A stretch of 64,000 bases of DNA from Alphaproteobacteria bacterium (lineage in GTDB: Bacteria > Pseudomonadota > Alphaproteobacteria > Rs-D84), in NCBI GenBank assembly GCA_017463185.1, contig JAFTPS010000013.1, positions 3,826-67,825 on the forward strand. Reading direction: 5' to 3'. The translations under genes and the position numbers were made by a program. Shown here one piece after another: positions 2,902 to 50,353 of this stretch (the stretch's first letter is position 1; every line of letters begins with the position of its first letter). The notes under the pieces were generated by a model that was given only the letters and a program-made list of their open reading frames with translations, ran no database searches and had not been told where the DNA came from.

Positions 2902-2958
2902 AATTTCACCTTGCGAATGCATGAATACTGGTATATCATTGCCGCATAAGGAAACTGA

Positions 2959-2981
2959 GTGGTTAGTGTAAGTGGTTAGTG
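2959..2981. repeat. Left inverted repeat of the four-helix-bundle gene cassette (GTGGTTAGTG-type)
   Basis: gtggttagtgtaagtggttagtg matches the reverse complement of 3339-3361 at 22 of 23 positions. Confidence 0.85.
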
Positions 2982-2997
2982 GCTAGTGGTGGAATAC

Positions 2998-3363
2998 ATG
3001 AAATCAGTCAAGGATTTAAAAGTTTATCAATGTGGATTTAAATTGACGATTGATGTATATAGGGTTACGGCTTGCTTTCCACCGAATGAACAATTTGGGT
3101 TAGTTTCACAGATGCGTAGGGCCGCTGTGTCTGTATGTTCTAATTTAGCAGAAGGGGCGGCGCGTGGAACAACGAAAGAGTATTTGCATTTTGTGTATGT
3201 AGCAAAAGGCTCGGCTGCGGAACTGGAAGCACAAATAGATTTAGCGACTGCATTAGGGTTTGTTGAAAAGGCCAAAGCAGGACAAATACATAAAGATATA
3301 ACGGAAGTTTTAAGAATGTTATCAGGATTGATTCATTCACTAACCACTAACACTAACCACTAA
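2998..3363 (+). CDS. Four-helix-bundle protein (23S rRNA intervening-sequence protein family)
   Basis: LKVYQ..F.L...VY.....[23 protein letters not shown]...GTTKEYLHF....GSAAELEAQ is the family signature. ATG at 2998 (the track start at 2986 is GTG). Confidence 0.8.
3339..3361. repeat. Right inverted repeat of the four-helix-bundle gene cassette
   Basis: cactaaccactaacactaaccac. It encodes the protein C-terminus (LTTNTNH) and pairs with 2959-2981. Confidence 0.85.
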
Positions 3364-3377
3364 CAACTGGTAATAAC

Positions 3378-5171
3378 ATGAAGCAATCTAATATCCGGAA
3401 TTTTTCAATTGTTGCACATATTGACCATGGCAAGTCCACTTTGTCGGACCGTTTAATTGAATTTACGGGCGGTCTGCAATCGCGCGAGATGAAGGCCCAA
3501 GTCTTGGATTCTATGGATATTGAACGTGAACGCGGTATCACGATTAAAGCGCAGACGGTGCGCCTGAATTACAAGGCAAAAAATGGCGAGGTTTATCAAC
3601 TGAATCTGATGGATACGCCGGGGCACGTAGACTTTTCGTATGAGGTGTCACGGTCGTTGGCCGCGTGCGAGGGGGCTTTGGTGTTGGTTGATGCAACCCA
3701 GGGGGTGCAGGCACAGACGTTGGCGAATGCGTATCTGGCGTTGGATAATGATTTGGAAATGTTACCTGTGTTGAACAAGATTGACTTGCCGTCCAGTGAT
3801 GTTGCCGCCACACGTGAACAGATTGCTGATGTTATCGGTCTGGATGCGAACGAGGCGTTAGCCGTATCGGGCAAAACCGGTGATGGTGTACCAGAATTAT
3901 TGGAAGAGATTGTAAATAAATTGCCCGCGCCGCATGGTGATGAAAATGCACCGACACGTGCGCTGTTGGTGGATTCGTGGTATGATTCATATCTGGGGGT
4001 TGTTATTCTGGTACGTGTGGTTGACGGTAATTTATCGCGCGGTCAGAAAATTAAATTTATGGCAACCGGGGCAGAATATGTTGTTGATAAAATTGGCTAT
4101 TTTACACCCAAAATGGTAAATGTTGATGCGTTACATACCGGGGAAATAGGTTTTATTATCACGGGAATGAAAACAATTCACGATTGCAAGGTTGGCGATA
4201 CAATCTGCGATTCGCGGGCGGAAAATATGAAAATGTTGCCCGGTTTTAAGCCGTCTGTGCCGGTGGTGTTTTCGTCATTCTTTCCGGTAGAGGCGGATGA
4301 TTATCCAACGTTCCGTGAAAGTGCGGAAAAGTTAGCTTTGAATGATGCTTCGTTTATGTTTACTGTTGAAAAATCATCTGCGTTGGGGTTTGGTTTGCGA
4401 TGTGGATTTTTGGGATTGTTGCACATGGAAATTATCAGTGAAAGATTGGCGCGTGAATTTAATCTGAATCTGATAAATACCGTGCCCAGCGTGCTGTACA
4501 AGATTCATTTGCGCGATGGCAGTGTCATAGATTTGGAAAATCCCGCTGATATGCCGGACCCAACACGAATCGCATCTATTGAAGAACCGTGGGTGCGTGC
4601 AACGATTATGATGCCCGATAAATATATGGGCGGAATTATGTCGCTGTGCTCGGAACGACGCGGAATCCAGGAAAATATTTCATATGTTGGTAATCGTGCG
4701 GTATTGGTATATCAGTTGCCGTTGGCGGAAATTGTGTTTGATTTTTATGACAGAGTAAAGTCTATTTCGTCAGGCTATGCGTCGTTTGATTATGTTGTAT
4801 TCGGATATCAACCATCCGATTTAGTAAAGGTTTCTATTCTGGTGAACGAGGAAAATGTTGAGCCTTTGTCATTTATGTGTCATCGGTCTTTTGCGGAAAA
4901 GCGTGGGCGTCAGATTGTTGAAAAATTAAAAGATTTAATTCCGCGTCATCAATTCAAAATTCCGTTGCAGGCAGCTATTGGTGGCAAGATTATTGCAAGA
5001 GAGACTATTGCTGCATATCGCAAAGATGTGACGGCAAAATGTTATGGGGGGGATATAACCCGTAAACGTAAATTGTTGGAAAAACAGAAAGAGGGTAAAA
5101 AGCGTATGCGTACCTTTGGTAATGTGGAAATTCCGCAATCGGCGTTTATCAATGCATTAAAGGTATCTTAA
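3378..5171 (+). CDS. lepA: Translation elongation factor 4 (LepA)
   Basis: 597 aa. [34 protein letters not shown] and the LepA-specific C-terminal region. Confidence 0.97.
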
Positions 5172-5182
5172 AAGGATTTATT

Positions 5183-5593
5183 ATGAAATGGTTTGATTAT
5201 TTGAAAAAAACACCTGTGGTACAAATTGTTGCAGATTGGCAGGAATACAGAAAATTAAAACAAGAAACTAATGCAGCACGGGATGATGCGGATTCTGCAT
5301 ATTTGTCTTTGAGACGATTTTATCCCATTGAAGCAAATATAAACAGTGGTAATGCGTGTGTAAAATGCAAACGAATTATTGATGACTTTGATGTTCTGAA
5401 TCAATCGCCGTGCAATTATTTTGTTGTATATTGTCCACATTTTGCGCCTCGGGACCAGGAAAAGAAATGTTCAAATAATTTGTGTGTGGGGTATCGGGCT
5501 AACAATCGTTATTATGATGCCAGGGTTCGGTATGATGCGTTAAAGGCAAAGTCTGATGCGTTTTGGAATAAAAAATTTGCAAATGTAAAATAA
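5183..5593 (+). CDS. Hypothetical protein with CxxC and scattered Cys
   Basis: 136 aa, good RBS (aaaagga), CVKCKR...C..(8)C...C....C. No family recognised. Confidence 0.5.
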   Translation: MKWFDYLKKTPVVQIVADWQEYRKLKQETNAARDDADSAYLSLRRFYPIEANINSGNACVKCKRIIDDFDVLNQSPCNYFVVYCPHFAPRDQEKKCSNNLCVGYRANNRYYDARVRYDALKAKSDAFWNKKFANVK

Positions 5594-5612: not shown

Positions 5613-6620
5613 ATGGCGCACCAGTTTTATTTTAATCCGTATATCTTGGATAACTTGCCTGCGCCAAGTTCGGGGTTTGATGTTGTTCAGGATATGTCTG
5701 AGCCGCGGTTGCGTATGTATATTACCAGTCGTGGGGTTAAAACTTTCTTTGTGCGCAAACGTGTTCATGGCAAAGATAAGCGCATTTTAATTGGCAACTA
5801 TCCTGATATGGATATAGAGGATGCGCGCAGTGCGGTTCCCACACTGTTGCAGGATGCGATGAAAAAGCCACCCGTGCGTCGTAAAAAAATTACATTTAAA
5901 AAATTTCTGGATTTATATTTAACGAATCGGGTTCGCCGGGGCGAGGATTCTCATACCAAACTGGTGCGGGCAATCAATCGTCATTTGTCTGATTTGTTTG
6001 AAAAAAATATTTGTGAAATATCAGCAACTGATATTCAAAATGTGATTTCACAAATTGGTGGGCCAGCCATTGCAGCGCGTATGCAGGAATTATTGCAGAG
6101 TATTTTTAACTATGCGATAGAAACTGGGTATGTGAAAAAAAATCCAACCGCCAATATTCAAAAGGTTCCACAAAATCGCCGTGTGCGTCCATTAAATCGT
6201 GCGGGCTTGCATCGCTTGATTGCAGCCATAGACCAATATCCAGACCAGACATTGCGGGCGGCATTCTTTATGTTGATTTATGGTTTTGTGCCGCGCTCAA
6301 AAGTTTTTTCTATGGCGTGGGAAGATTTAGATTTTAATCACGATATGTGGTTGGGGCGACCTTTGTCGGACCGTGCCATTGTTTTGTTGCAGGATTTACC
6401 CCAGGATGGACATTGGGTTTTCCCGGGACGGGGCGGTATGCATTTGATGGACCCGCGTACAGCCTGGCGACGCGTTGCGGTGGCGGCTGGGATTCCGGGA
6501 TTGACAATGGATGATGTGTATAAATTCCTGATGCGTCAGTTGGTTTGGGCGTCCGACCGCGAGGATTTTCGTGCAAATATAAATTCATTGTTGGATGATA
6601 TATTTTCCCAAAACATATAA
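5613..6620 (+). CDS. Tyrosine-recombinase (phage integrase)-like protein, catalytic motifs degenerate
   Basis: The N-terminus (LRMYITSRGVKTFFVRKRVHGKDKRILIGNYPDMDIEDARS) looks like a P4-type integrase arm-binding domain. The C-terminal domain keeps box I (YGFVPRSKVFSMAWEDLDF) but has LTMDDVYKFL where HxLR is expected, and no terminal Tyr motif. Confidence 0.6.
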   Translation: MAHQFYFNPYILDNLPAPSSGFDVVQDMSEPRLRMYITSRGVKTFFVRKRVHGKDKRILIGNYPDMDIEDARSAVPTLLQDAMKKPPVRRKKITFKKFLDLYLTNRVRRGEDSHTKLVRAINRHLSDLFEKNICEISATDIQNVISQIGGPAIAARMQELLQSIFNYAIETGYVKKNPTANIQKVPQNRRVRPLNRAGLHRLIAAIDQYPDQTLRAAFFMLIYGFVPRSKVFSMAWEDLDFNHDMWLGRPLSDRAIVLLQDLPQDGHWVFPGRGGMHLMDPRTAWRRVAVAAGIPGLTMDDVYKFLMRQLVWASDREDFRANINSLLDDIFSQNI

Positions 6621-8419: not shown

Positions 8420-8875
8420 TTATTTCTGATTTTCTTTCAGTCTGTAAATTATATTGAATAATTGTGCGGAATTGTCGGTCGTTTGAATTTTGCCAGTAAT
8501 ACGTTTTTCTGCCATATCTAGTGTCTTAAAGAATTTAGGTGAACGCACGCGTGTAATAAAGCGTTTCAAATCGCATTGTGTTTTATCCAATGCGCTGCCG
8601 ACTTCGTGTTTTGTTCTTTCGTCCAATAAACTGTGTTGCGGATTTAGTGATGTGCCGCGTTGCAGGCTAATATGACCCTTATATTTCATTTTTGGATATG
8701 TTCCAATTTTATATGGTGCTTTACAGGTTGCGCTGATAATCAGGCAATATGGGTAATCGGCCAGACCGCGTTTTGTAAATGTGTAAAGAATATCGTCGTT
8801 GCTGATATATGCGTCGGCTTGTGTGTCTTTGTCCATGATAAATGCGATTGCGATATCATAAATTTCGTTTTTCAT
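8420..8875 (-). CDS. Hypothetical protein
   Basis: 151 aa, RBS aagagg upstream of the ATG. No recognisable motif. Confidence 0.5.
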   Translation of the reverse strand: MKNEIYDIAIAFIMDKDTQADAYISNDDILYTFTKRGLADYPYCLIISATCKAPYKIGTYPKMKYKGHISLQRGTSLNPQHSLLDERTKHEVGSALDKTQCDLKRFITRVRSPKFFKTLDMAEKRITGKIQTTDNSAQLFNIIYRLKENQK

Positions 8876-8925
8876 TTTTTAACCTCTTATTTGTTATTCC
8901 TGTGATAGGTATAGCACAAAAAACA

Positions 8926-8953
8926 TTGTTTGTCAATAGGTAGGTTTTATAAT
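8926..8953 (+). promoter_or_regulatory. Sigma70-like promoter (TTGTTT-16-TATAAT)
   Basis: ttgttt at 8926-8931, tataat at 8948-8953. Positioned to start the GC-rich structured RNA. Confidence 0.4.
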
Positions 8954-8959
8954 TTATTT

Positions 8960-9250
8960 TTCCTTGTTTTTATGGGGCGGGTTTGGTAGAATTTTCTGTG
9001 AAACCATCAGGGATTGTGGTTTCGGGGCCTTAGAAAGCCTACTTTGCGCCGACACGGTGTTTGTGTCGTTCCCTACGCATAGTATGGGGCGCATTGTGCG
9101 CCATTTATTATGCACTAATCACCCGGACCTTTGTGTCGGGGTGCCGCCGGTGTATGCAACAGGGCGCATGCGCCCAAAGACCGGCGGGAACATGCAAAGT
9201 GTTTTTCTAACACCCCGACCGTCAATTCCATTGGCGGTTTTGTTTTTTAT
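8960..9250 (+). ncRNA. Candidate structured RNA (sRNA, or riboswitch-like leader of the VirB2-like gene)
   Basis: GC-rich island in AT-rich spacer. Hairpins at 9000-9023, 9050-9068, 9088-9102. Nested helices 9135-9143/9211-9219, 9144-9151/9180-9187 and 9162-9175. Intrinsic terminator 9218-9248 just before the RBS at 9255. Confidence 0.35.
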
Positions 9251-9265
9251 ACAAAGGGGTGAAAT

Positions 9266-9628
9266 ATGAAATGTCAAAAAATGCTTGTGGGACTGGCGTT
9301 ATCATTGGTTGTGATACCGGCGTTTGCCGCGGCGAATATTGATGGACTATGTGGACTGATTGCCGAAATGCAGGGAATTTTCAAAATTCTGCGGACATTG
9401 GCATTCGCGGGGGCGGGATTTATTCTGGCCAAATATGCGTGGGAAGCAATCAGTACTGGTAAATTAAATGGTGAAGCAGAACTTATCAAAGGGGTACAGA
9501 AAACAGGTATTCCAATGCTGGTGGGGCTAATTTTGCTGTTTATGATTGGCACTATATTACAGGTGCTAAGTTCTGCTTCTGGGGCCAGTGTGTTGGGGTG
9601 CAGTGACGAGTTGTTTCAAGGATGGTAA
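9266..9628 (+). CDS. Small membrane protein, TrbC/VirB2 pilin-like architecture
   Basis: 120 aa. Signal peptide (LALSLVVIPAFAAA) plus two hydrophobic helices separated by a short polar loop, as in T4SS pilins. Assignment rests on architecture only. Confidence 0.35.
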   Translation: MKCQKMLVGLALSLVVIPAFAAANIDGLCGLIAEMQGIFKILRTLAFAGAGFILAKYAWEAISTGKLNGEAELIKGVQKTGIPMLVGLILLFMIGTILQVLSSASGASVLGCSDELFQGW

Positions 9629-9643
9629 ATAAAGGGGGGTAAA

Positions 9644-9739
9644 ATGAGAATTACATATGAACATAAAAAGTGTATAGTTTATTATGTTGCCGTCGTTGCA
9701 ATATTGCTGTGCGGCGTTATGATTGGAATAGGGTATTAA
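9644..9739 (+). CDS. 31-aa single-TM mini-protein (not in ORF track)
   Basis: Strong SD aaagggggg 6 nt before the ATG at 9644. MRITYEHKKCIVYYVAVVAILLCGVMIGIGY, stop at 9737-9739, terminator immediately after. Confidence 0.4.
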   Translation: MRITYEHKKCIVYYVAVVAILLCGVMIGIGY

Positions 9740-9767
9740 AAATCCCGCCATTGGCGGGATTTTTTTC
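9738..9767 (+). terminator. Rho-independent terminator
   Basis: aaaaATCCCGCCattGGCGGGATttttttt. The hairpin is identical to the one at 32811-32837. Confidence 0.85.
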
Positions 9768-9768
9768 A

Positions 9769-9835
9769 GTGGTTAGTGTAAGTGGTTAGTGAATAGTGGC
9801 GGAATACATAAAAAGTTATTAGTGTTTTGTTATTA
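9769..9835 (+). repeat. Solo remnant of the four-helix-bundle cassette 5' end
   Basis: agtggttagtgtaagtggttagtgaatagtggcggaatacataaaaag aligns with 2958-3004, but ATG has become ATA and the ORF is gone. Confidence 0.75.
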
Positions 9836-9892
9836 TAATGTGTGATACGACCATCAACACTGGCATAAAATTAAAATCGCCACAGGGGCGAT
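9828..9892. repeat. Direct repeat copy 1 (about 65 bp, includes a terminator hairpin)
   Basis: The 49-bp core gatacgaccatcaacactggcataaaattaaaatcgccacaggggcgat is identical to 10001-10049. Flanks are partly conserved. Confidence 0.9.
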
Positions 9893-9896
9893 AAAA

Positions 9897-9990
9897 ATGT
9901 GTCGTGCCTGGGCTGTAATTCCCACCACTTTGTGGCGGGCCCCTTTCACTTCGCGTGCAAGCACGCCTCGTTCCGAACCACACATTATTG
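9897..9990 (-). ncRNA. Candidate small RNA between duplicated terminator modules
   Basis: GC-rich, about 95 nt. Hairpins CCCGCCAC-AAAG-GUGGUGGG and GCGUG-CUUG-CACGC on the minus strand. Followed by the same terminator that follows tRNA-Pro. Identity unknown. Confidence 0.25.
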
Positions 9991-10049
9991 CATAATGTAT
10001 GATACGACCATCAACACTGGCATAAAATTAAAATCGCCACAGGGGCGAT
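9984..10049. repeat. Direct repeat copy 2
   Basis: See 9828-9892. This copy lies directly downstream of tRNA-Pro on the minus strand. Confidence 0.9.
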
Positions 10050-10059
10050 TTGAATTTTA

Positions 10060-10136
<77 letters not shown>

Positions 10137-10266
10137 TTAAACAATGCGGACCTGATTATGCAATTAAAATTTATAAAAATCAATCTTTTTTGTTGAATTT
10201 TTCCCTTGTATTTTTGCCTTTATCGCACCATATTTATCTTTGCATACAACAAAAAAAGGAATAAAT

Positions 10267-14339: not shown

Positions 14340-14972
14340 TTAATTTGTATAATAGCAATTGTTGCTGAATTCATATGTGCCGCTGGTATCTTGTATGGAT
14401 TGTGCGGATGGTATATAGCAGGAAGTTATTGAAGTCGCGCCACCAGATGCGGTTGTGCCATATACATCGCCGGATGATGGACAACGTGCACAAGTATTGC
14501 CGTTTTTATAATAGCCTTGGTTGCAACTAAATGTTGTGCCGCCATCACAGGTTGCGTTACTGGGGCAAATTGTGCAGCCTGTGGATGAAGATGTGGGGCT
14601 GCCATAATATCCGGTTTCGCAGGTGTAATCCTGTATTGTGTATGTGGTGCATTCGGCTGGTGTGTTGTAATCCTCTTTTTCTGGGCAGGTCGTAAATTCA
14701 ATTACGCGCCAGTTTGATGTTATAACATGTGAAGAATAATTAGTTGTTGTGGATGTTGGAACACCGCGATAGGGTAGCCATTCTTCACATTCCATCATAC
14801 ATGGGTCGTCCATTGTATACCAACCGCCTGAATCATTGATTGGTTGGCAGGCGCTGACGTCTACATAAGCGCACGGATTTATTGGGTAAAGGTTGGAATA
14901 TTGAGCGTATATGTTTTTTGTTGTAATACAGGCAATGCAAATATACGCACTTGTGATAATTTTTTTGTTCAT
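14340..14972 (-). CDS. Secreted Cys-rich protein with furin/ephrin-receptor-like (CxxGYY...CxxCP) repeats
   Basis: 210 aa, RBS aggag, signal-like N-terminus. CETGYYGSPTSSSTGCTICPSNATCDGGTTFSCNQGYYKNGNTCARCPSSG. Confidence 0.7.
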   Translation of the reverse strand: MNKKIITSAYICIACITTKNIYAQYSNLYPINPCAYVDVSACQPINDSGGWYTMDDPCMMECEEWLPYRGVPTSTTTNYSSHVITSNWRVIEFTTCPEKEDYNTPAECTTYTIQDYTCETGYYGSPTSSSTGCTICPSNATCDGGTTFSCNQGYYKNGNTCARCPSSGDVYGTTASGGATSITSCYIPSAQSIQDTSGTYEFSNNCYYTN

Positions 14973-15218
14973 TTGTTCTATCTCCTGTGTTTTTTGATTA
15001 AAAGCAAAAAACCGTCAATTTTTTTGACGGTCAGGAGGTTAGTAACAATCCATAGAATTGCGTGCTTATTTATGTATATCGCAACCCTCCTGACCGATGG
15101 TCAGGAGATTTTTTCGTCACAGACAATAAAAAAAGACGCGTTTTTGCGCCATTTTAAGTCTTGTTTGTTGACGCTATGGCAGAGGTTACTACGCCTCATC
15201 GTCAGAATACCTGACGAC
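14973..15218 (-). promoter_or_regulatory. Conserved structured 5' leader, copy A (homolog of 44365-44603)
   Basis: The minus-strand core at 15005-15115 is about four-fifths identical by eye to 44477-44588. It has a CUCCUGACC-nnn-GGUCAGGAG hairpin, a downstream CCUCCUGACCGUC, and a terminator hairpin with a U-run. Confidence 0.55.
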
Positions 15219-15224
15219 GTTTCT

Positions 15225-15253
15225 ATTCTATCAAATCAAGTTTTTTTATGCAA
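15225..15253 (-). promoter_or_regulatory. Sigma70-like promoter (TTGCAT-17-TAGAAT) for leader copy A
   Basis: Minus strand ttgcat at 15253-15248 and tagaat at 15230-15225. Confidence 0.5.
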
Positions 15254-15373
15254 TATTGAATTTAACAAGGGATGTTGTACGGATTAAAAATTTGTCATTG
15301 TTGTGAGTAGGGTAAAATCCTAATTTTTCGCGCTTTTCAAGCGGAAATCTTATATTTTTTTCCTAGTTTTTTC

Positions 15374-32162: not shown

Positions 32163-32546
32163 ATGGCAGTTACAAAAGCTAAAAAGAAAGTTGTAAAAAA
32201 AGTATCGCACGGCATTGCACACGTTGTTGCGACTAATAACAATACACGTATTACAATCACAGACCAGTCTGGTGCCGTGTTGACCTGGGCCACCGCTGGG
32301 GCAAATAATTTTAAGGGCGCGAAAAAGTCCACACCATATGCCGCAACAATCGTTGCAGATGCAGTTGGTAAAAAAGTCGCCGAAATGGGTATGAAAACAG
32401 TTGATGTTTTGATGCGTGGTATTGGTCAGGGTCGTGAATCTGCTGTACGTGGATTGGCAAACGCCGGTCTGATTGTGCAGTCCATTACCGATACAACGCG
32501 TATTCCGCACAATGGGTGCCGCCCAAAGAAAGTGCGTCGCGTGTAA
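32163..32546 (+). CDS. rpsK: 30S ribosomal protein S11
   Basis: GIAHVVATNNNTRITITDQSG...KGAKKSTPYAA...DTTRIPHNGCRPKK.RR. Confidence 0.98.
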   Translation: MAVTKAKKKVVKKVSHGIAHVVATNNNTRITITDQSGAVLTWATAGANNFKGAKKSTPYAATIVADAVGKKVAEMGMKTVDVLMRGIGQGRESAVRGLANAGLIVQSITDTTRIPHNGCRPKKVRRV

Positions 32547-32549
32547 TAA

Positions 32550-32578
32550 AAATCCCGCCAACGGCGGGATTTTTTTTA
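32550..32578 (+). terminator. Strong rho-independent terminator directly after rpsK
   Basis: aaaaATCCCGCCaacGGCGGGATtttttttt. Confidence 0.9.
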
Positions 32579-32597: not shown

Positions 32598-32706
32598 TAT
32601 TCTTTTTTGTCATTGCGAGCGAACGCGCCTGCCATACGAAGCCTTGGCGTAGTGTGGTGGCAAACCAGTAAATTAGTGTAAGTTGTTAGTGGATAGTGTT
32701 GAAATT
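32598..32706 (+). repeat. Degenerate remnant of the four-helix-bundle cassette 5' region
   Basis: gtcattgcgagcgaa...taaattagtgtaagttgttagtggatagtgttgaaat is similar to 2936-2996. No ORF. Confidence 0.5.
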
Positions 32707-32810
32707 CCGGGGTGGGGGGGGGAAAAGATAGAAATACCAATCCCCCACCCAGGTTTTACTAATTCACTGTCGTTCATAAGTAAAACCGTCCCGCCCCACA
32801 AGGGGGCAGG

Positions 32811-32837
32811 GAAAATCCCGCCATTGGCGGGATTTTT
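32811..32837 (-). terminator. Terminator of the Cys-rich operon (hairpin identical to 9738-9767)
   Basis: ATCCCGCCattGGCGGGAT just beyond the stop at 32840, with A and T runs on both sides. Confidence 0.75.
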
Positions 32838-32839
32838 GA

Positions 32840-47867: not shown

Positions 47868-47941
47868 TGGTTGGGGCAGCTGGATTCGAACCAACACTGA
47901 CGGAGTCAGAGTCCGGAGTTCTACCATTAAACTATGCCCCA
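47868..47941 (-). tRNA. tRNA-Gln (anticodon CUG)
   Basis: 74 nt. UGGGGCA acceptor (U1-A72 as in bacterial tRNA-Gln), anticodon loop CUCUGAC, GGTTCGAATCC T-arm, encoded CCA. Confidence 0.9.
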
Positions 47942-48106
47942 ATGCCCGGCTATTATATGCATGACGATTACATTTTGCAAGCACAAAATTTAACACTTTT
48001 CACGGAAATTCACTAAACCCAACGGACACGACAAATTATTCACTGCTTTCCTGTGGATTTTTTGAAACCAACCCCTATGCTGAATTTATAACCAAAAGGA
48101 CATTCA

Positions 48107-48253
48107 ATGACAGAAAAATTACTCACCCCAAATCAACTGGCAGAAAACCTTGGGATCAAACCCTTCACCCTGTTGCAATACAGAATGAATGGCAAAGGGC
48201 CAAAATATATCAAATTGGGACACCTGGTGCGAAATAGGACTCGCCCCCAGTAA
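48107..48253 (+). pseudogene. AlpA/excisionase-type HTH gene, apparently truncated (48 codons)
   Basis: MTEKLLTPNQLAENLGIKPFTLLQYRMNGKGPKYIKLGHLVR then a premature stop. The normal family continues for about 15-20 more aa. Confidence 0.5.
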
Positions 48254-48341
48254 CAACATGTCGCACTGGTTCACGTCTGCCGGCATAGAACCCCAGCAAG
48301 AACAGAGCTGGAACGATTAAAAGCACGACTCTGTCTTTCAT
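48210..48341 (-). CDS. Possible 43-aa hydrophobic peptide (not in track)
   Basis: MKDRVVLLIVPALFLLGFYAGRREP.... The SD GGGAG 3 nt upstream is sequestered in the hairpin ACUCCC...GGGAGU (48342-48387). Convergently overlaps the alpA-like remnant. Confidence 0.25.
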   Translation of the reverse strand: MKDRVVLLIVPALFLLGFYAGRREPVRHVVTGGESYFAPGVPI

Positions 48342-48629
48342 CGACTCCCACATAAAAGACCACTCAACAAAGTGAGTGGTCGGGAGTTGAACAGTTCAAG
48401 AACAGAACTCCGTGCTTTCGGGATAAATCCCTATGGTATGGCAACGGCATCCCGACCAGAGTCGGGACATTAGAAGTTAAAGTTCTTGGGTGTTCAAACC
48501 CGTTTACACTTATAATGTCGCTTGTGCAATAAAATGCACAAGAACATTCTACTATAAAATATTAAAAAATCACCCCTGACATATTTTCTATTTTTATCAA
48601 GATTTCTTTGGTTTTTATTCATATAAAGT

Positions 48630-48658
48630 TTGTTTTTACCCCGTTTTTATGATACAAT
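48630..48658 (+). promoter_or_regulatory. Promoter (TTGTTT-17-TACAAT with extended -10 TG)
   Basis: ttgttt at 48630-48635, tgatacaat at 48650-48658. Confidence 0.5.
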
Positions 48659-48663
48659 ATTTG

Positions 48664-48848
48664 CCGACACAGGCGACTGTGTTGGGCGTTACAACCCATA
48701 ACATTAGGTGTCCGTGGGGACACAAAAAACCTCTAACCTTTGGTTGGAGGGCGGCGAATATACCGAATAAGCCCGCTATTTCCTAATGTTATAGTTGTAA
48801 ACCTCCAACCACCAAAGAATGCCTGTGTGGAATTAAACGGAGAGTAGC
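48664..48848 (+). promoter_or_regulatory. Highly structured leader RNA (multi-helix junction), riboswitch or attenuator candidate
   Basis: 9-bp hairpin with GCGA tetraloop (48664-48685). About 20-bp closing helix 48688-48708/48782-48802 enclosing three hairpins. Downstream ACCUCCAACC (48801-48810) can alternatively pair with 48742-48751. Confidence 0.4.
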
Positions 48849-49118
48849 ATGACAAAACAGAAACAACCCAGCAAAACAATGACCCTGCCAAAAACTCTGT
48901 GGGGATTTTATTTTAAGCACGCAATTCACGGTAATGGCTGGATGATTCTGGCAGGTGCAATTTTATCATTTGTTGTTGCTTTTGACCGAGTATTACAACC
49001 ACTTATTCAAAGTTGGACGGTGGCAGAGTTGCTGGAAGAACTGCGACCCGCGATTGAGATAATACCAGACAATCACATTAAACTGCGAATGATGGGGGGT
49101 ACGTACGGCTCTGCGTAG
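48849..49118 (+). CDS. Hypothetical 89-aa membrane-protein fragment (possibly the N-terminal piece of a transporter)
   Basis: LWGFYFKHAIHGNGWMILAGAILSFVVAF looks like one TM segment. Short and isolated, so a gene remnant is likely. Confidence 0.3.
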   Translation: MTKQKQPSKTMTLPKTLWGFYFKHAIHGNGWMILAGAILSFVVAFDRVLQPLIQSWTVAELLEELRPAIEIIPDNHIKLRMMGGTYGSA

Positions 49119-49194
49119 GCCACCTGAACAAGCAAATACGAATTCTGGAACAAGCACTCGGCAAACCAACATTTGTAGATATAAAGGCATAGAT

Positions 49195-49731
49195 ATGACA
49201 GACAAACCAAAAACACTTTATCATGGATCGCAACATGAAATTACAGATGGTTTTATCAGAATGAAACCTGGACGTATTGACGGTATGCGCACACCAATAA
49301 CTGCGGCTTTTGCAACCCCAAGTTACAGACACGCACGATTGTATGCCGTCATGCGAATAATTTCTAATGGATGGAAAGCGCCCACAGAAATAGACACACT
49401 GTATGTTGAATGTATAAATCCAAATATTACAAAACAAAAGGCGTATGTGTACGAAGTTTCTTCGGACGGTTTTATCCCAGATGGCGATGATTATTATTGC
49501 CTGAACGATGTGCCAATCTTGAAAACCTATGAAATTGATGTTATGCAAGAAATCAGAAATGGGAACATCAAGGTATATGTCCTGCAAGATAAAGTAAATT
49601 TTGACGGTCTGTCAGATGAAGAAAGTCTGGCTTTGTGGCAAAAAACAAAAAGGACCGGACATTTTGAACGATATATTCCAGAAGAACCCAAAAAAACTTT
49701 AACCTTTTTTGATAAAGGTCTAGATAGATAA
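49195..49731 (+). CDS. Hypothetical protein, YHGS-motif family, paralog 1
   Basis: 178 aa. KTLYHGSQHEITDGF...AAFATPSYRHARLYA...AYVYEVSS...IKVYVL aligns with the next gene. Confidence 0.55.
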   Translation: MTDKPKTLYHGSQHEITDGFIRMKPGRIDGMRTPITAAFATPSYRHARLYAVMRIISNGWKAPTEIDTLYVECINPNITKQKAYVYEVSSDGFIPDGDDYYCLNDVPILKTYEIDVMQEIRNGNIKVYVLQDKVNFDGLSDEESLALWQKTKRTGHFERYIPEEPKKTLTFFDKGLDR

Positions 49732-49747
49732 ACCTAAGGAATATCTT

Positions 49748-50353
49748 ATGAAGAAAGATGCATTTGAATATGGATCCAAACAAATAGAATCACGCACGTT
49801 TTATCATGGTTCCGCAACAAAAATAGACGGTGATTTTTTAGAACCCAAAGAACAATTTAACAGTGTTCAAAACAAACGTGTTGTCGGTGCATTTGTTACA
49901 TCAGATGCAGATTATGCAAAATTCTTTGCACTGGTAAAATGCTTGTCTGGTCGCGGTCAATGTAAGTTGCATGGCAAGAAAATATTCTTTGAACGAATAT
50001 CTGACAGTATAAAGCCAGAATTCAACTTGTATACAGTCGTCGAACAACCAGACGAAAAATTTATTCACGACAAAGGCACAGAATATTATTCGCCAACACC
50101 AATCAAGATATCCAAGCGGCAAACTTGTAATACGGTTGATGAAATAGAAAAGTTGGGGTATGAAATATACGTGCTGAACGAGCCATTAAAAAGCAAACCA
50201 AACAAACAGTCTAATGACAATTCACACGTTCAATCTGAAATGCACCAGGCGATTGCAAACGGTGCGTATCATCGTGTAGATGTTGCGGATTTAATCAAGC
50301 AACAAAAATCAAAAAGTATATTTCAGAAATTATTTAATTGGCAAAAAGATTAG
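49748..50353 (+). CDS. Hypothetical protein, YHGS-motif family, paralog 2
   Basis: 201 aa. RTFYHGSATKIDGDF...GAFVTSDADYAKFFA...NLYTVVEQ...YEIYVL. Confidence 0.55.
   Translation: MKKDAFEYGSKQIESRTFYHGSATKIDGDFLEPKEQFNSVQNKRVVGAFVTSDADYAKFFALVKCLSGRGQCKLHGKKIFFERISDSIKPEFNLYTVVEQPDEKFIHDKGTEYYSPTPIKISKRQTCNTVDEIEKLGYEIYVLNEPLKSKPNKQSNDNSHVQSEMHQAIANGAYHRVDVADLIKQQKSKSIFQKLFNWQKD

Follow-up and report, generated by a model that had tools for sequence, protein, structure and literature searches.

Several described RNA systems resemble in part the element studied here, a leader of about 250 nt at approximately 8998-9248 on the plus strand of a 64,000-nt stretch of DNA from an alphaproteobacterium of the lineage Rs-D84 (GenBank assembly GCA_017463185.1, contig JAFTPS010000013.1, positions 3,826 to 67,825 of the forward strand). 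This whole stretch is called the window, and positions are counted from its first letter. In the trp leader (pairings 1:2/2:3/3:4) and in the expression platforms of many Firmicute riboswitches, there are three boxes, and the middle one can pair with either neighbour. The third box overlaps the 5' arm of a terminator just before the Shine-Dalgarno (SD) sequence, and expression occurs only by read-through. T-box leaders (RF00230) are large multi-helix leaders with a competing antiterminator and terminator, and many copies per genome serve one functional class of genes. In some bacteria, the c-di-GMP-I (GEMM-I) riboswitch occurs in many copies per genome before genes for secreted, pilus and surface proteins, often acting via terminators. 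BglG/SacY, ANTAR, PyrR and TRAP are known examples of factor-dependent control of this type. The CcsR or 'cuckoo' small RNAs (sRNAs; RF02791) of alphaproteobacteria carry C-rich, anti-SD-like CCUCCUCCC motifs and form tandem arrays.

We consider it likely that the leader at 8998-9248 is a cis-acting transcription attenuator, which behaves as a two-state switch and represents a new multi-copy family in gut alphaproteobacteria of the Rs-D84/'Candidatus Enterousia' type. It is a leader of the terminator/antiterminator kind and lies outside every described family tested. As in the trp leader and the Firmicute platforms, its middle box (G2) pairs with either C1 or C3, C3 overlaps the terminator 5' arm just before the SD, and expression would come only from read-through. 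It differs from them in three respects: the family has no conserved leader peptide, its sensor domain matches no Rfam family, and it conserves a second layer of alternative pairing (helix P2 versus G0:C0 and P7). The leader shares with the T-box its size, its competing helices and its many copies before a functional class of genes. However, there was no Rfam T-box match, the antiterminator is an uninterrupted helix of 8-11 bp without the bulge that binds the tRNA acceptor, no specifier-loop-like element was recognised, and the downstream genes are for secreted proteins rather than being aminoacyl-tRNA synthetase or amino-acid genes. Like the c-di-GMP-I riboswitch, the family is multi-copy upstream of genes for secreted or surface proteins. 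It has no Rfam match to that class either, and a long-range closing helix with a junction of 4-6 helices stands in place of two hairpins with a tetraloop-receptor. With CcsR it shares the alphaproteobacterial host, the C-rich boxes and, sometimes, tandem copies (contig L143, below). In contrast to CcsR, its C boxes are paired in stems instead of standing in hairpin loops, its copies lie directly before genes, and the only Rfam CcsR1 match in the window was sub-threshold (22.6 bits at 44686-44740, minus strand) and outside the leader copies.

Rfam 15 in gathering mode returned only two tRNAs and an Alpha_RBS element in the whole window, with no match to a leader. In E-value mode (8800-10200, 44250-48650 and 14900-15320, covering four copies), scores inside the leaders were at most about 23 bits against thresholds of 35-118. 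ARAGORN found no tmRNA. An earlier note, made from the letters alone, had seen no signature motif of tmRNA, RNase P, signal recognition particle RNA, 6S RNA or the cobalamin, TPP, FMN and c-di-GMP elements, and these searches agree with it; the Rfam/Infernal comparison that it proposed matched no known family.

Structure of the leader

The target intergenic region is 390 nt long, between the divergent open reading frame (ORF) 8420-8875 (minus strand) and the gene 9266-9628 (plus strand). Its G+C content peaks at 56%, compared with a background of about 37-45%. The multi-helix RNA lies at 8995-9253 (plus strand), with an intrinsic terminator that ends 7 nt 5' of the SD of gene 9266-9628. RNAfold gave -117.2 kcal/mol for 8950-9255 (plus strand) and -94.9 ± 5.2 kcal/mol for 100 dinucleotide shuffles (z = -4.3), none of which (0/100) was as good. 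The terminator scan placed a stem of GACCGTCAA/TTGGCGGTT with the tail TTGTTTTTT at 9217-9248. After the U-run, whose last position is 9248, come the SD core GGGG at 9256-9259 and the ATG at 9266. The parts of the target leader, from 5' to 3' on the plus strand, are as follows.

8964-8992, plus: conserved sigma-70-type promoter, predicted from the alignment of 8 relatives; -35 TTGTTT 8964-8969, 17-nt spacer, extended -10 TGgTAGAAT 8984-8992
9000-9023, plus: P1 hairpin, GAAACCAT / GTGGTTTC with loop CAGGGATT; common to both folds
9024-9047, plus: 5' strand of the long-range helix P2; G0 GGGG 9024-9027, P2a 9030-9037, C0 GCC 9037-9039, P2b 9042-9047
9049-9055/9063-9069, plus: peripheral hairpin P3, with compensatory changes in 8 relatives
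9077-9084/9106-9113, plus: peripheral hairpin P4, inner stem 9088-9093/9097-9102, with compensatory changes in 8 relatives
9120-9143, plus: P5 or "hairpin A", C1 CACCCGGAC (9120-9128) paired with G2 GTCGGGGTG (9135-9143); present in the minimum free energy (MFE) fold
9144-9151/9180-9187, plus: P6 hairpin, inserted stem 9162-9167/9170-9175; conserved loop motif TATnCAACA...AAAG
9189-9210, plus: P7 switch hairpin region; arms AACA 9189-9192 and TGTT 9200-9203 flank the P2b 3' strand 9194-9199; P2a 3' strand 9203-9210
9211-9219, plus: C3 box CACCCCGAC; pairs with G2 (9 bp), or with G0 via CCCC 9213-9216, closing P2; its last 3 nt lie in the terminator stem
9217-9248, plus: predicted intrinsic terminator; stem 9217-9225/9231-9239, loop TTCCA, U-run to 9248; conserved with compensatory changes
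9254-9628, plus: SD AAGGGG 9254-9259 and the putatively controlled gene 9266-9628 (120 aa)

A hand-curated structure of the target (P1, P2 in three segments, P3, P4, P6 and the terminator) was compared with 8 close relatives. In these, 87.9% of the cells were paired, against 42-48% when the partners were slid, and 31 of the 70 pairs were changed on both sides, a number reached by 0/500 shuffles. Of the 61 pairs that RNAalifold predicted on the 8 close-subfamily sequences, 27 show compensatory changes. Both P2 segments, P2a and P2b, covary in these relatives (P2b with 6/6 pairs changed on both sides) and also in 63 copies of the wider family, and the outer stem of P6 (P6a) is 100% paired in the relatives, with 4/8 pairs changed on both sides. 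The region of P3 and P4 (9049-9113) is variable or absent in the paralogues, and the shorter copies lack P4. The earlier note had described the hairpins of 8926-9250, including a nested three-helix domain at 9135-9219 and a terminator stem with a U-run. RNAfold and the terminator scan bore out these structural statements with their positions. The nested domain is G2 (9135-9143) paired with C3 (9211-9219) and enclosing P6a and P6b, and the covariation analysis suggested there also came out in favour of the structure.

Predicted promoter and non-coding status

Sequence conservation with the relatives begins at about 8994-8997, and a conserved TTGnnn-17-TGnTAnAAT (CTTGT-17-TAnAAT) stands just 5' of it. 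An equivalent promoter is found about 8 nt 5' of P1 in every paralogous copy. Transcription is predicted from the sequence to start at about 8998-9000. The earlier note had placed the promoter further upstream (TTGTTT 8926-8931, 16 nt, TATAAT 8948-8953). Those hexamers are present, but they are not conserved in the relatives, and the promoter scan omits them because the -35 matches at 3/6 positions only. Since the conserved promoter is that at 8964-8992, the RNA should be about 250 nt long rather than the 290 nt given before.

The earlier note had regarded the 101-codon ORF 8964-9269 as spurious, and the comparison with relatives leads to the same view. The relatives have stops in the corresponding frames, tblastn matches switch frames, and identity to the closest relative over this ORF is 82% for the DNA but only 53% for the protein. 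Its TTG "start codon" is the -35 hexamer of the conserved promoter, and it has no ribosome binding site. The protein-coding reading was rejected because the frame is not conserved. Leader-peptide attenuation was also ruled out, as no open frame or small ORF is conserved in the relatives; the AUG at the P1/G0 boundary (GAUGAGG) reads GCGGGG or ACGAGG in many copies.

Two mutually exclusive folds

The copies of the family share one order of parts. From the 5' end, a putative promoter is followed by P1, G0, the P2a 5' strand, C0, the P2b 5' strand, P3 and, in some copies, P4. Then come hairpin A (C1:G2), P6, the P7 arm, the P2b 3' strand, the complementary arm, the P2a 3' strand, C3, the terminator, the U-run, the SD and the ATG. 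In the family at large, P1 is a covarying stem of 7-9 bp with the loop GUGUU/GUAUU (GGGAUU in the subfamily of the target). G0 is GAGG/GGGG, C0 is CCUC/CCC, and C1:G2 is, for example, CUCCUGACC:GGUCAGGAG. The P6 loop is GAAUAUAUUGAAUAAGC, or else it carries an inserted stem, as it does in the target; in the main group its motif reads GAATATATTGAATAAGC, and AATAAG is invariant in 21 main-group copies. The P7 arms have 4-6 nt, C3 is a near-copy of C1, and the terminator 5' arm begins inside C3.

G2 and C3 can form a contiguous helix of 8-11 bp that overlaps the terminator stem by 3-5 nt in 24/25 copies (per-sequence helix search). This complementarity is kept by at least six box sequences: CACCCCGAC, UCCCGACC, CCUCCUGACC, CCUCCUGGCC, CCUCCAACC and ACUCCAACC. 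In the target, GUCGGGGUG at 9135-9143 pairs with CACCCCGAC at 9211-9219, and the terminator stem starts at 9217. The P7 arms, searched for in the same way, occur in about 10 sequence variants at a fixed position 6-8 nt 5' of C3, among them CAAU/AUUG, CUAU/AUAG, AACA/UGUU, AAUCA/UGAUU, UCAU/AUGA and AGUUC/GAACU. P7 excludes a complete P2, because two of its nucleotides belong to P2a as well, the P2b 3' strand lies inside it and no linker is left to span a helix of 6-8 bp.

Both folds were counted on 63 distinct main-group copies in a model-based alignment (A7). The core of the terminator fold (P1, G0:C3, P2a, P2b) was 89.0% paired, with a covariation of 0.626 against 0.185 for shuffles (0/500). 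The antiterminator fold (P1, G0:C0, G2:C3, P7) was 97.6% paired, a fraction inflated by the fitting of A7 to this very structure, which did not so favour the P2 counts; its covariation was 0.527 against 0.168 (0/500). P1, which belongs to both, had 7/7 pairs changed on both sides and 96.7% of cells paired. G2:C3 was 99.8% paired with 4/9 pairs covarying, and P7 was 97.8% paired, with UA in 33 and AU in 30 copies at one pair. G0 covaries with C0 (GC in 32 copies, AU in 20, GU in 8), and the C3 partner of G0 stays U (GU in 40, AU in 20). The two helix sets share alignment column 43 and columns 225-226. RNAalifold on an independent MAFFT alignment of 21 copies chose the antiterminator fold unaided, and hand counts there agree. 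An earlier MAFFT alignment of all subfamilies (A5) was badly registered in its 5' half and was replaced by the per-sequence helix searches and A7. Judged on these sequences, two mutually exclusive folds both covary. The earlier note had left the choice between an independent sRNA and a transcription-terminating riboswitch. A terminating, riboswitch-like leader fits far better than a purely independent sRNA, because the nested domain at 9135-9219 and the terminator at 9217-9239 share 3 nt and compete in the way of an antiterminator and a terminator.

An H-type pseudoknot of G0:C0 and the P2a core appears sterically feasible, given the 1 nt between G0 and the 6-7 bp of P2a. Two further contacts were considered and dropped. 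Comparison of the loops by eye gave no systematic covariation for a kissing interaction between the P1 and P6 loops. Complementarity between C3 and the downstream SD, considered as a translational control, exists but is uninformative, because any SD complements CCUCC.

Default state and proposed mechanism

The unconstrained MFE of full-length copies is the terminator fold. Forcing G2:C3 in the full-length RNA cost 13.4 kcal/mol on average (range 4.9-20.1). In transcripts cut before the terminator 3' arm, the antiterminator still cost a mean of 7.6 kcal/mol and was the MFE in 0/24 copies, and G2 was paired upstream in the MFE of 22/24. When G2:C3 was forced, the predicted remainder contained the G0:C0 and P7 hairpins, matching the covariation. 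Since the terminator fold is energetically favoured in these models, it is probably the default, with the genes OFF, and hairpin A is predicted to act as an anti-antiterminator.

Each unit would thus consist of its own promoter, the leader, the intrinsic terminator and, 7-25 nt further on, the SD and start codon of the controlled gene. A G+C-rich hairpin with a U-run stands directly 5' of an ORF in nearly all copies, the copy at 48666-48836 being the exception, and the evolutionarily kept helix G2:C3 sequesters part of the terminator 5' arm. Because there is no promoter between the terminator and the SD, gene 9266-9628 should be transcribed only via read-through. In the terminator fold, P2 (G0:C3, P2a, P2b) would close the multi-helix junction, C1 would lock G2 in hairpin A, and the terminator could form. 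In the antiterminator fold, G2 would pair over 8-11 bp with C3 and remove 3-5 nt of the terminator 5' arm, while G0 folds back onto C0 and the small hairpin P7 holds the P2b 3' strand in its loop. An effector, either a small molecule or an RNA-binding factor, may stabilise the antiterminator fold and so turn ON a regulon of mostly secreted or surface proteins.

Besides the inflated pairing of the antiterminator fold, the following points speak against an attenuator of this kind. The minus strand of the target folds about equally well (RNAfold z = -4.8) and was scored 30 bits by the covariance model R1 (described below). Folding energy alone thus cannot assign the strand, and it is the promoter, the U-run and the gene context that point to the plus strand. 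The promoter, the transcription start and the function of the terminator are all predicted from sequence. Nearest-neighbour models ignore pseudoknots, tertiary contacts and kinetics, so that the OFF default is something we infer. No candidate binding pocket was identified in the leader. The terminator of the copy at 48666-48836 has no U-run, so termination is not the sole output in every copy. In the metagenome contig L143, each of the tandem copies has a promoter-like sequence and a terminator, and an ORF follows only the last of them. This array could consist of stacked attenuators or be an sRNA array, and the terminated RNA may have an added sRNA role alongside attenuation.

Copies and distribution of the family

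The earlier note had treated the RNA as a single element and missed its multi-copy nature. Two covariance models were used: R1, built from the close subfamily of the target, and R2, built from 21 main-group copies. With filters off, R2 found exactly five copies within the window, the target and the following four paralogous leaders.

14995-15227, minus: R1 E = 1e-6, R2 140 bits; 5' of ORF 14972-14340 (minus), a Cys-rich product of 210 aa with a signal-peptide-like N-terminus
44356-44595, plus: R2 120 bits, match 44364-44587; 5' of ATG 44604, product with a signal-peptide-like N-terminus
48353-48530, minus: short form, R1 E = 9e-12; 5' of an ORF of 43 codons for a membrane peptide; back to back with the copy at 48666-48836
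48666-48836, plus: R2 84 bits; 5' of a fragmented ABC-transporter gene (ATG 48849); weak terminator without a U-run

About 75 copies were found in all. A scan with one genome per species gave 143 relatives, sampled as 10-kb pieces, of which 80 loci were kept, all from gut metagenome-assembled genomes labelled Alphaproteobacteria or 'Candidatus Enterousia'. The Candidatus Enterousia-type lineage is described as the uncultured order Rs-D84, whose genomes are mostly <1 Mb (PMC12306168). In the 80 loci, R1 found about 30 copies, and most do not adjoin the gene of the 120-aa protein. A pattern scan followed by an R2 filter gave 36 further copies in metagenome contigs, all from gut- or rumen-type assemblies as judged by contig name, and 3 copies in a viral collection. 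Distant-mode blastn of the target leader against a plasmid collection gave no match. By blastn and nhmmer, the intergenic element is kept 5' of the 120-aa gene in five loci (L001, L002, L003, L004 and L017) and in part in L020. In the same searches, L003 proved to have another copy in divergent orientation, and L022 and L023 to carry copies at other places.

Back-to-back divergent pairs, about 100-135 nt apart, were observed at two unrelated loci: 48353-48530 (minus) with 48666-48836 (plus) in the window, and 4310-4561 (minus) with 4665-4926 (plus) in L003. The L143 contig (Ga0073906_1009298) carries four head-to-tail copies within 850 nt (156-1000) and a fifth at 5135-5288 (minus).

Downstream genes

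In 60/71 copies, an SD and a start codon lie about 10-70 nt downstream on the same strand. Of these 60 products, 43 have a hydrophobic, signal-peptide-like N-terminus by a heuristic that asks for a 10-residue stretch among the first 35 residues with a mean Kyte-Doolittle value of 2.0 or more. Cysteine is abundant in many of them. The proteins behind the leaders fall into several unrelated, unnamed families. About 9 copies precede a family of XRE-like helix-turn-helix (HTH) proteins of 72-106 aa. These HTH proteins were seen behind leaders in L119, L130, L090, L045, L017 (7619-7768) and L143 (5135-5288), with no homologue in the window. The remaining 11/71 copies have no detectable downstream ORF, and 3 of the 4 tandem copies in L143 are among them. 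Behind two ORF-less leaders, in L091 (about 3800-3862, minus) and L140 (about 490-562, minus), there is very G+C-rich, hairpin-forming sequence, for example CCCCTCTGGCTAGAGGGGTGCCGGGTAGCACCCGGCGGGG, which may be another structured RNA.

The product of gene 9266-9628 has 120 aa, a signal-peptide-like N-terminus and two hydrophobic helices, and belongs to an unnamed family; among its 32 homologues none has a Pfam domain. The label "VirB2-like" that this gene carried in the earlier note could not be upheld. No Pfam or NCBIfam family matched, a profile search of PDB sequences gave no pilin (best E = 0.96, TatC), and no type IV secretion genes flank 9266-9628 in the window. The AlphaFold model of the protein, of moderate confidence (predicted local distance difference test, pLDDT, 65), consists of a signal helix and a generic helical hairpin, and Foldseek against the PDB found nothing significant with it (best E = 3.5). 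The likeness to a pilin is limited to topology, a signal peptide and two hydrophobic helices. Among the homologues of the gene, the leader occurs only with the closest ones and in L005, L017 and L029, apart from the partial element in L020. Because the distant homologues have ordinary upstream regions without a leader, the leader is a modular, portable cassette and not part of the 120-aa gene family.

After the 120-aa gene, a hydrophobic short ORF of about 31 codons and then a strong terminator (9738-9766) were observed within 9645-9766. Terminators near-identical to this one recur at 32543-32576 and 32806-32839. Downstream of the copy at 48666-48836, the ABC transporter is split into several ORFs (89, 178 and 201 aa) at 48849-50353, and this may be a pseudogene or an assembly error. 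The orthologue of that leader copy in L224 precedes an intact ABC transporter of 595 aa.

Alternative explanations

What stabilises the antiterminator was considered first. If the leader is a small-molecule riboswitch, a special case of the attenuator proposed here, the junction, possibly pseudoknotted via G0:C0 and P2a, would be an aptamer for a metabolite or an ion, and the ligand would stabilise the antiterminator. We regard this as possible, though short of probable. A large conserved architecture of 180-250 nt in which some unpaired nucleotides are invariant (for example AAUAAG in the P6 loop), the covariation of two mutually exclusive folds and the many copies per genome before functionally related genes are consistent with it, and the stabilisation of about 8 kcal/mol needed by the antiterminator fold is a plausible contribution of a ligand. 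However, the gene context suggests no ligand, as the genes behind the leaders encode uncharacterised secreted proteins instead of the enzymes or transporters of a single pathway. Variation among the copies is wide in the peripheral helices and extends to the box sequences, and no Rfam riboswitch was found to resemble the leader.

In factor-dependent antitermination, an RNA-binding protein or another macromolecule would read the loops of P1 (GUGUU/GUAUU) and P6 and stabilise the antiterminator. This seems to us possible as well, at slightly lower odds. The large regulon with few conserved loop motifs would suit such a factor. Within a single genome the copies have different paired boxes, a point that also favours this explanation: any common factor would need to recognise shape or loops, which is how protein antiterminators work. 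The XRE-like proteins that recur behind about 9 copies could share the circuit, but DNA is what HTH proteins usually bind. Neither the window nor the loci yielded a candidate RNA-binding regulator, no ANTAR-type dual hexaloop or element like a ribonucleic antiterminator (RAT) was recognised, and the Rfam model of the PyrR binding site scores only 17 bits, on the wrong strand.

An independent trans-acting sRNA is unlikely. Here the terminated transcript of about 180-250 nt would itself be the product, acting for example by CCUCC-type boxes on SD sequences, and the adjacency to genes would be incidental. Its own promoter and terminator, the likeness of the C1 and C3 boxes to anti-SD sequences and the copies without an ORF, including those in L143, agree with this. 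Nevertheless, the 60/71 same-strand copies leave no space for another promoter between the leader and the SD and ATG, a covarying antiterminator that overlaps the terminator would be purposeless in a constitutively terminated sRNA, and the C boxes are paired in both folds and not exposed in loops. Finally, a mobile or repetitive element, like a miniature inverted-repeat transposable element or a repetitive extragenic palindrome, or a protein encoded by the ORF 8964-9269, to which the many copies per genome and the ATGA overlap of the 101-codon frame with the start of the next gene might point, is very improbable, as the copies are too diverged for DNA repeats (a repeat finder pairs only fragments of the copies near 15 and 44 kb), differ by compensatory base changes, are strongly oriented toward gene starts and show no terminal inverted repeats or target duplications, and the frame fails as described above.

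Possible significance

If the attenuator reading is confirmed, the leaders would form a new class of cis-regulatory RNA, either a candidate for an orphan riboswitch or the target of an antitermination factor. Their density is unusually high, with 5 copies in 64 kb and about 1 per 15-25 kb as extrapolated from the sampled loci, in genomes reported to be smaller than about 1 Mb (PMC12306168). In this uncultured and little-understood gut lineage, the family appears to co-ordinate genes for secreted, often Cys-rich proteins. The regulon that the leaders define offers a handle on proteins deployed together, and its effector would indicate the environmental or host signal that is sensed. As a speculation, a new riboswitch class or ligand-sensing switch with tens of copies per genome of about 0.8-1 Mb might put much of the secretome of Rs-D84/Enterousia, an uncultured and metabolically dependent order of gut alphaproteobacteria, under one signal derived from the host or the community, with a two-layer design (P2 versus G0:C0 and P7; C1:G2 versus G2:C3) not described before. 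Two covarying, mutually exclusive folds are also a clean natural model for the construction of RNA switches.

Other features of the window

A direct repeat of 58 nt (98% identical) at 9835-9892 and 9992-10049 brackets a G+C-rich segment of 99 nt (9893-9991). It adjoins the 3' end of tRNA-Pro(CGG) (10060-10136, minus), and each repeat copy contains a terminator-like hairpin. This arrangement might have arisen by duplication of an att-like site, or it might be what is left of a small insertion. A dispersed repeat beginning with AGTGGTTAGTGTAAGTGGTTAGTG occurs at at least four places (2958-3003, 9768-9813, 32668-32713 and, inverted, 3335-3366), and one of its copies stands directly after the terminator that ends the transcription unit 9266-9740. 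Upstream of acpP-fabF, the ORF 5613-6620 (335 aa) has the N-terminal and central domains of a phage integrase (Arm-DNA-bind_3 and Phage_int_M) but matches the catalytic domain only marginally; it may be a degenerate integrase. In-frame tandem repeats were found at 45484-46381 (93-nt units, ORF 44829-46622) and 57097-58586 (216-nt units, ORF 55675-58710), which suggests that these two ORFs encode repetitive surface proteins.

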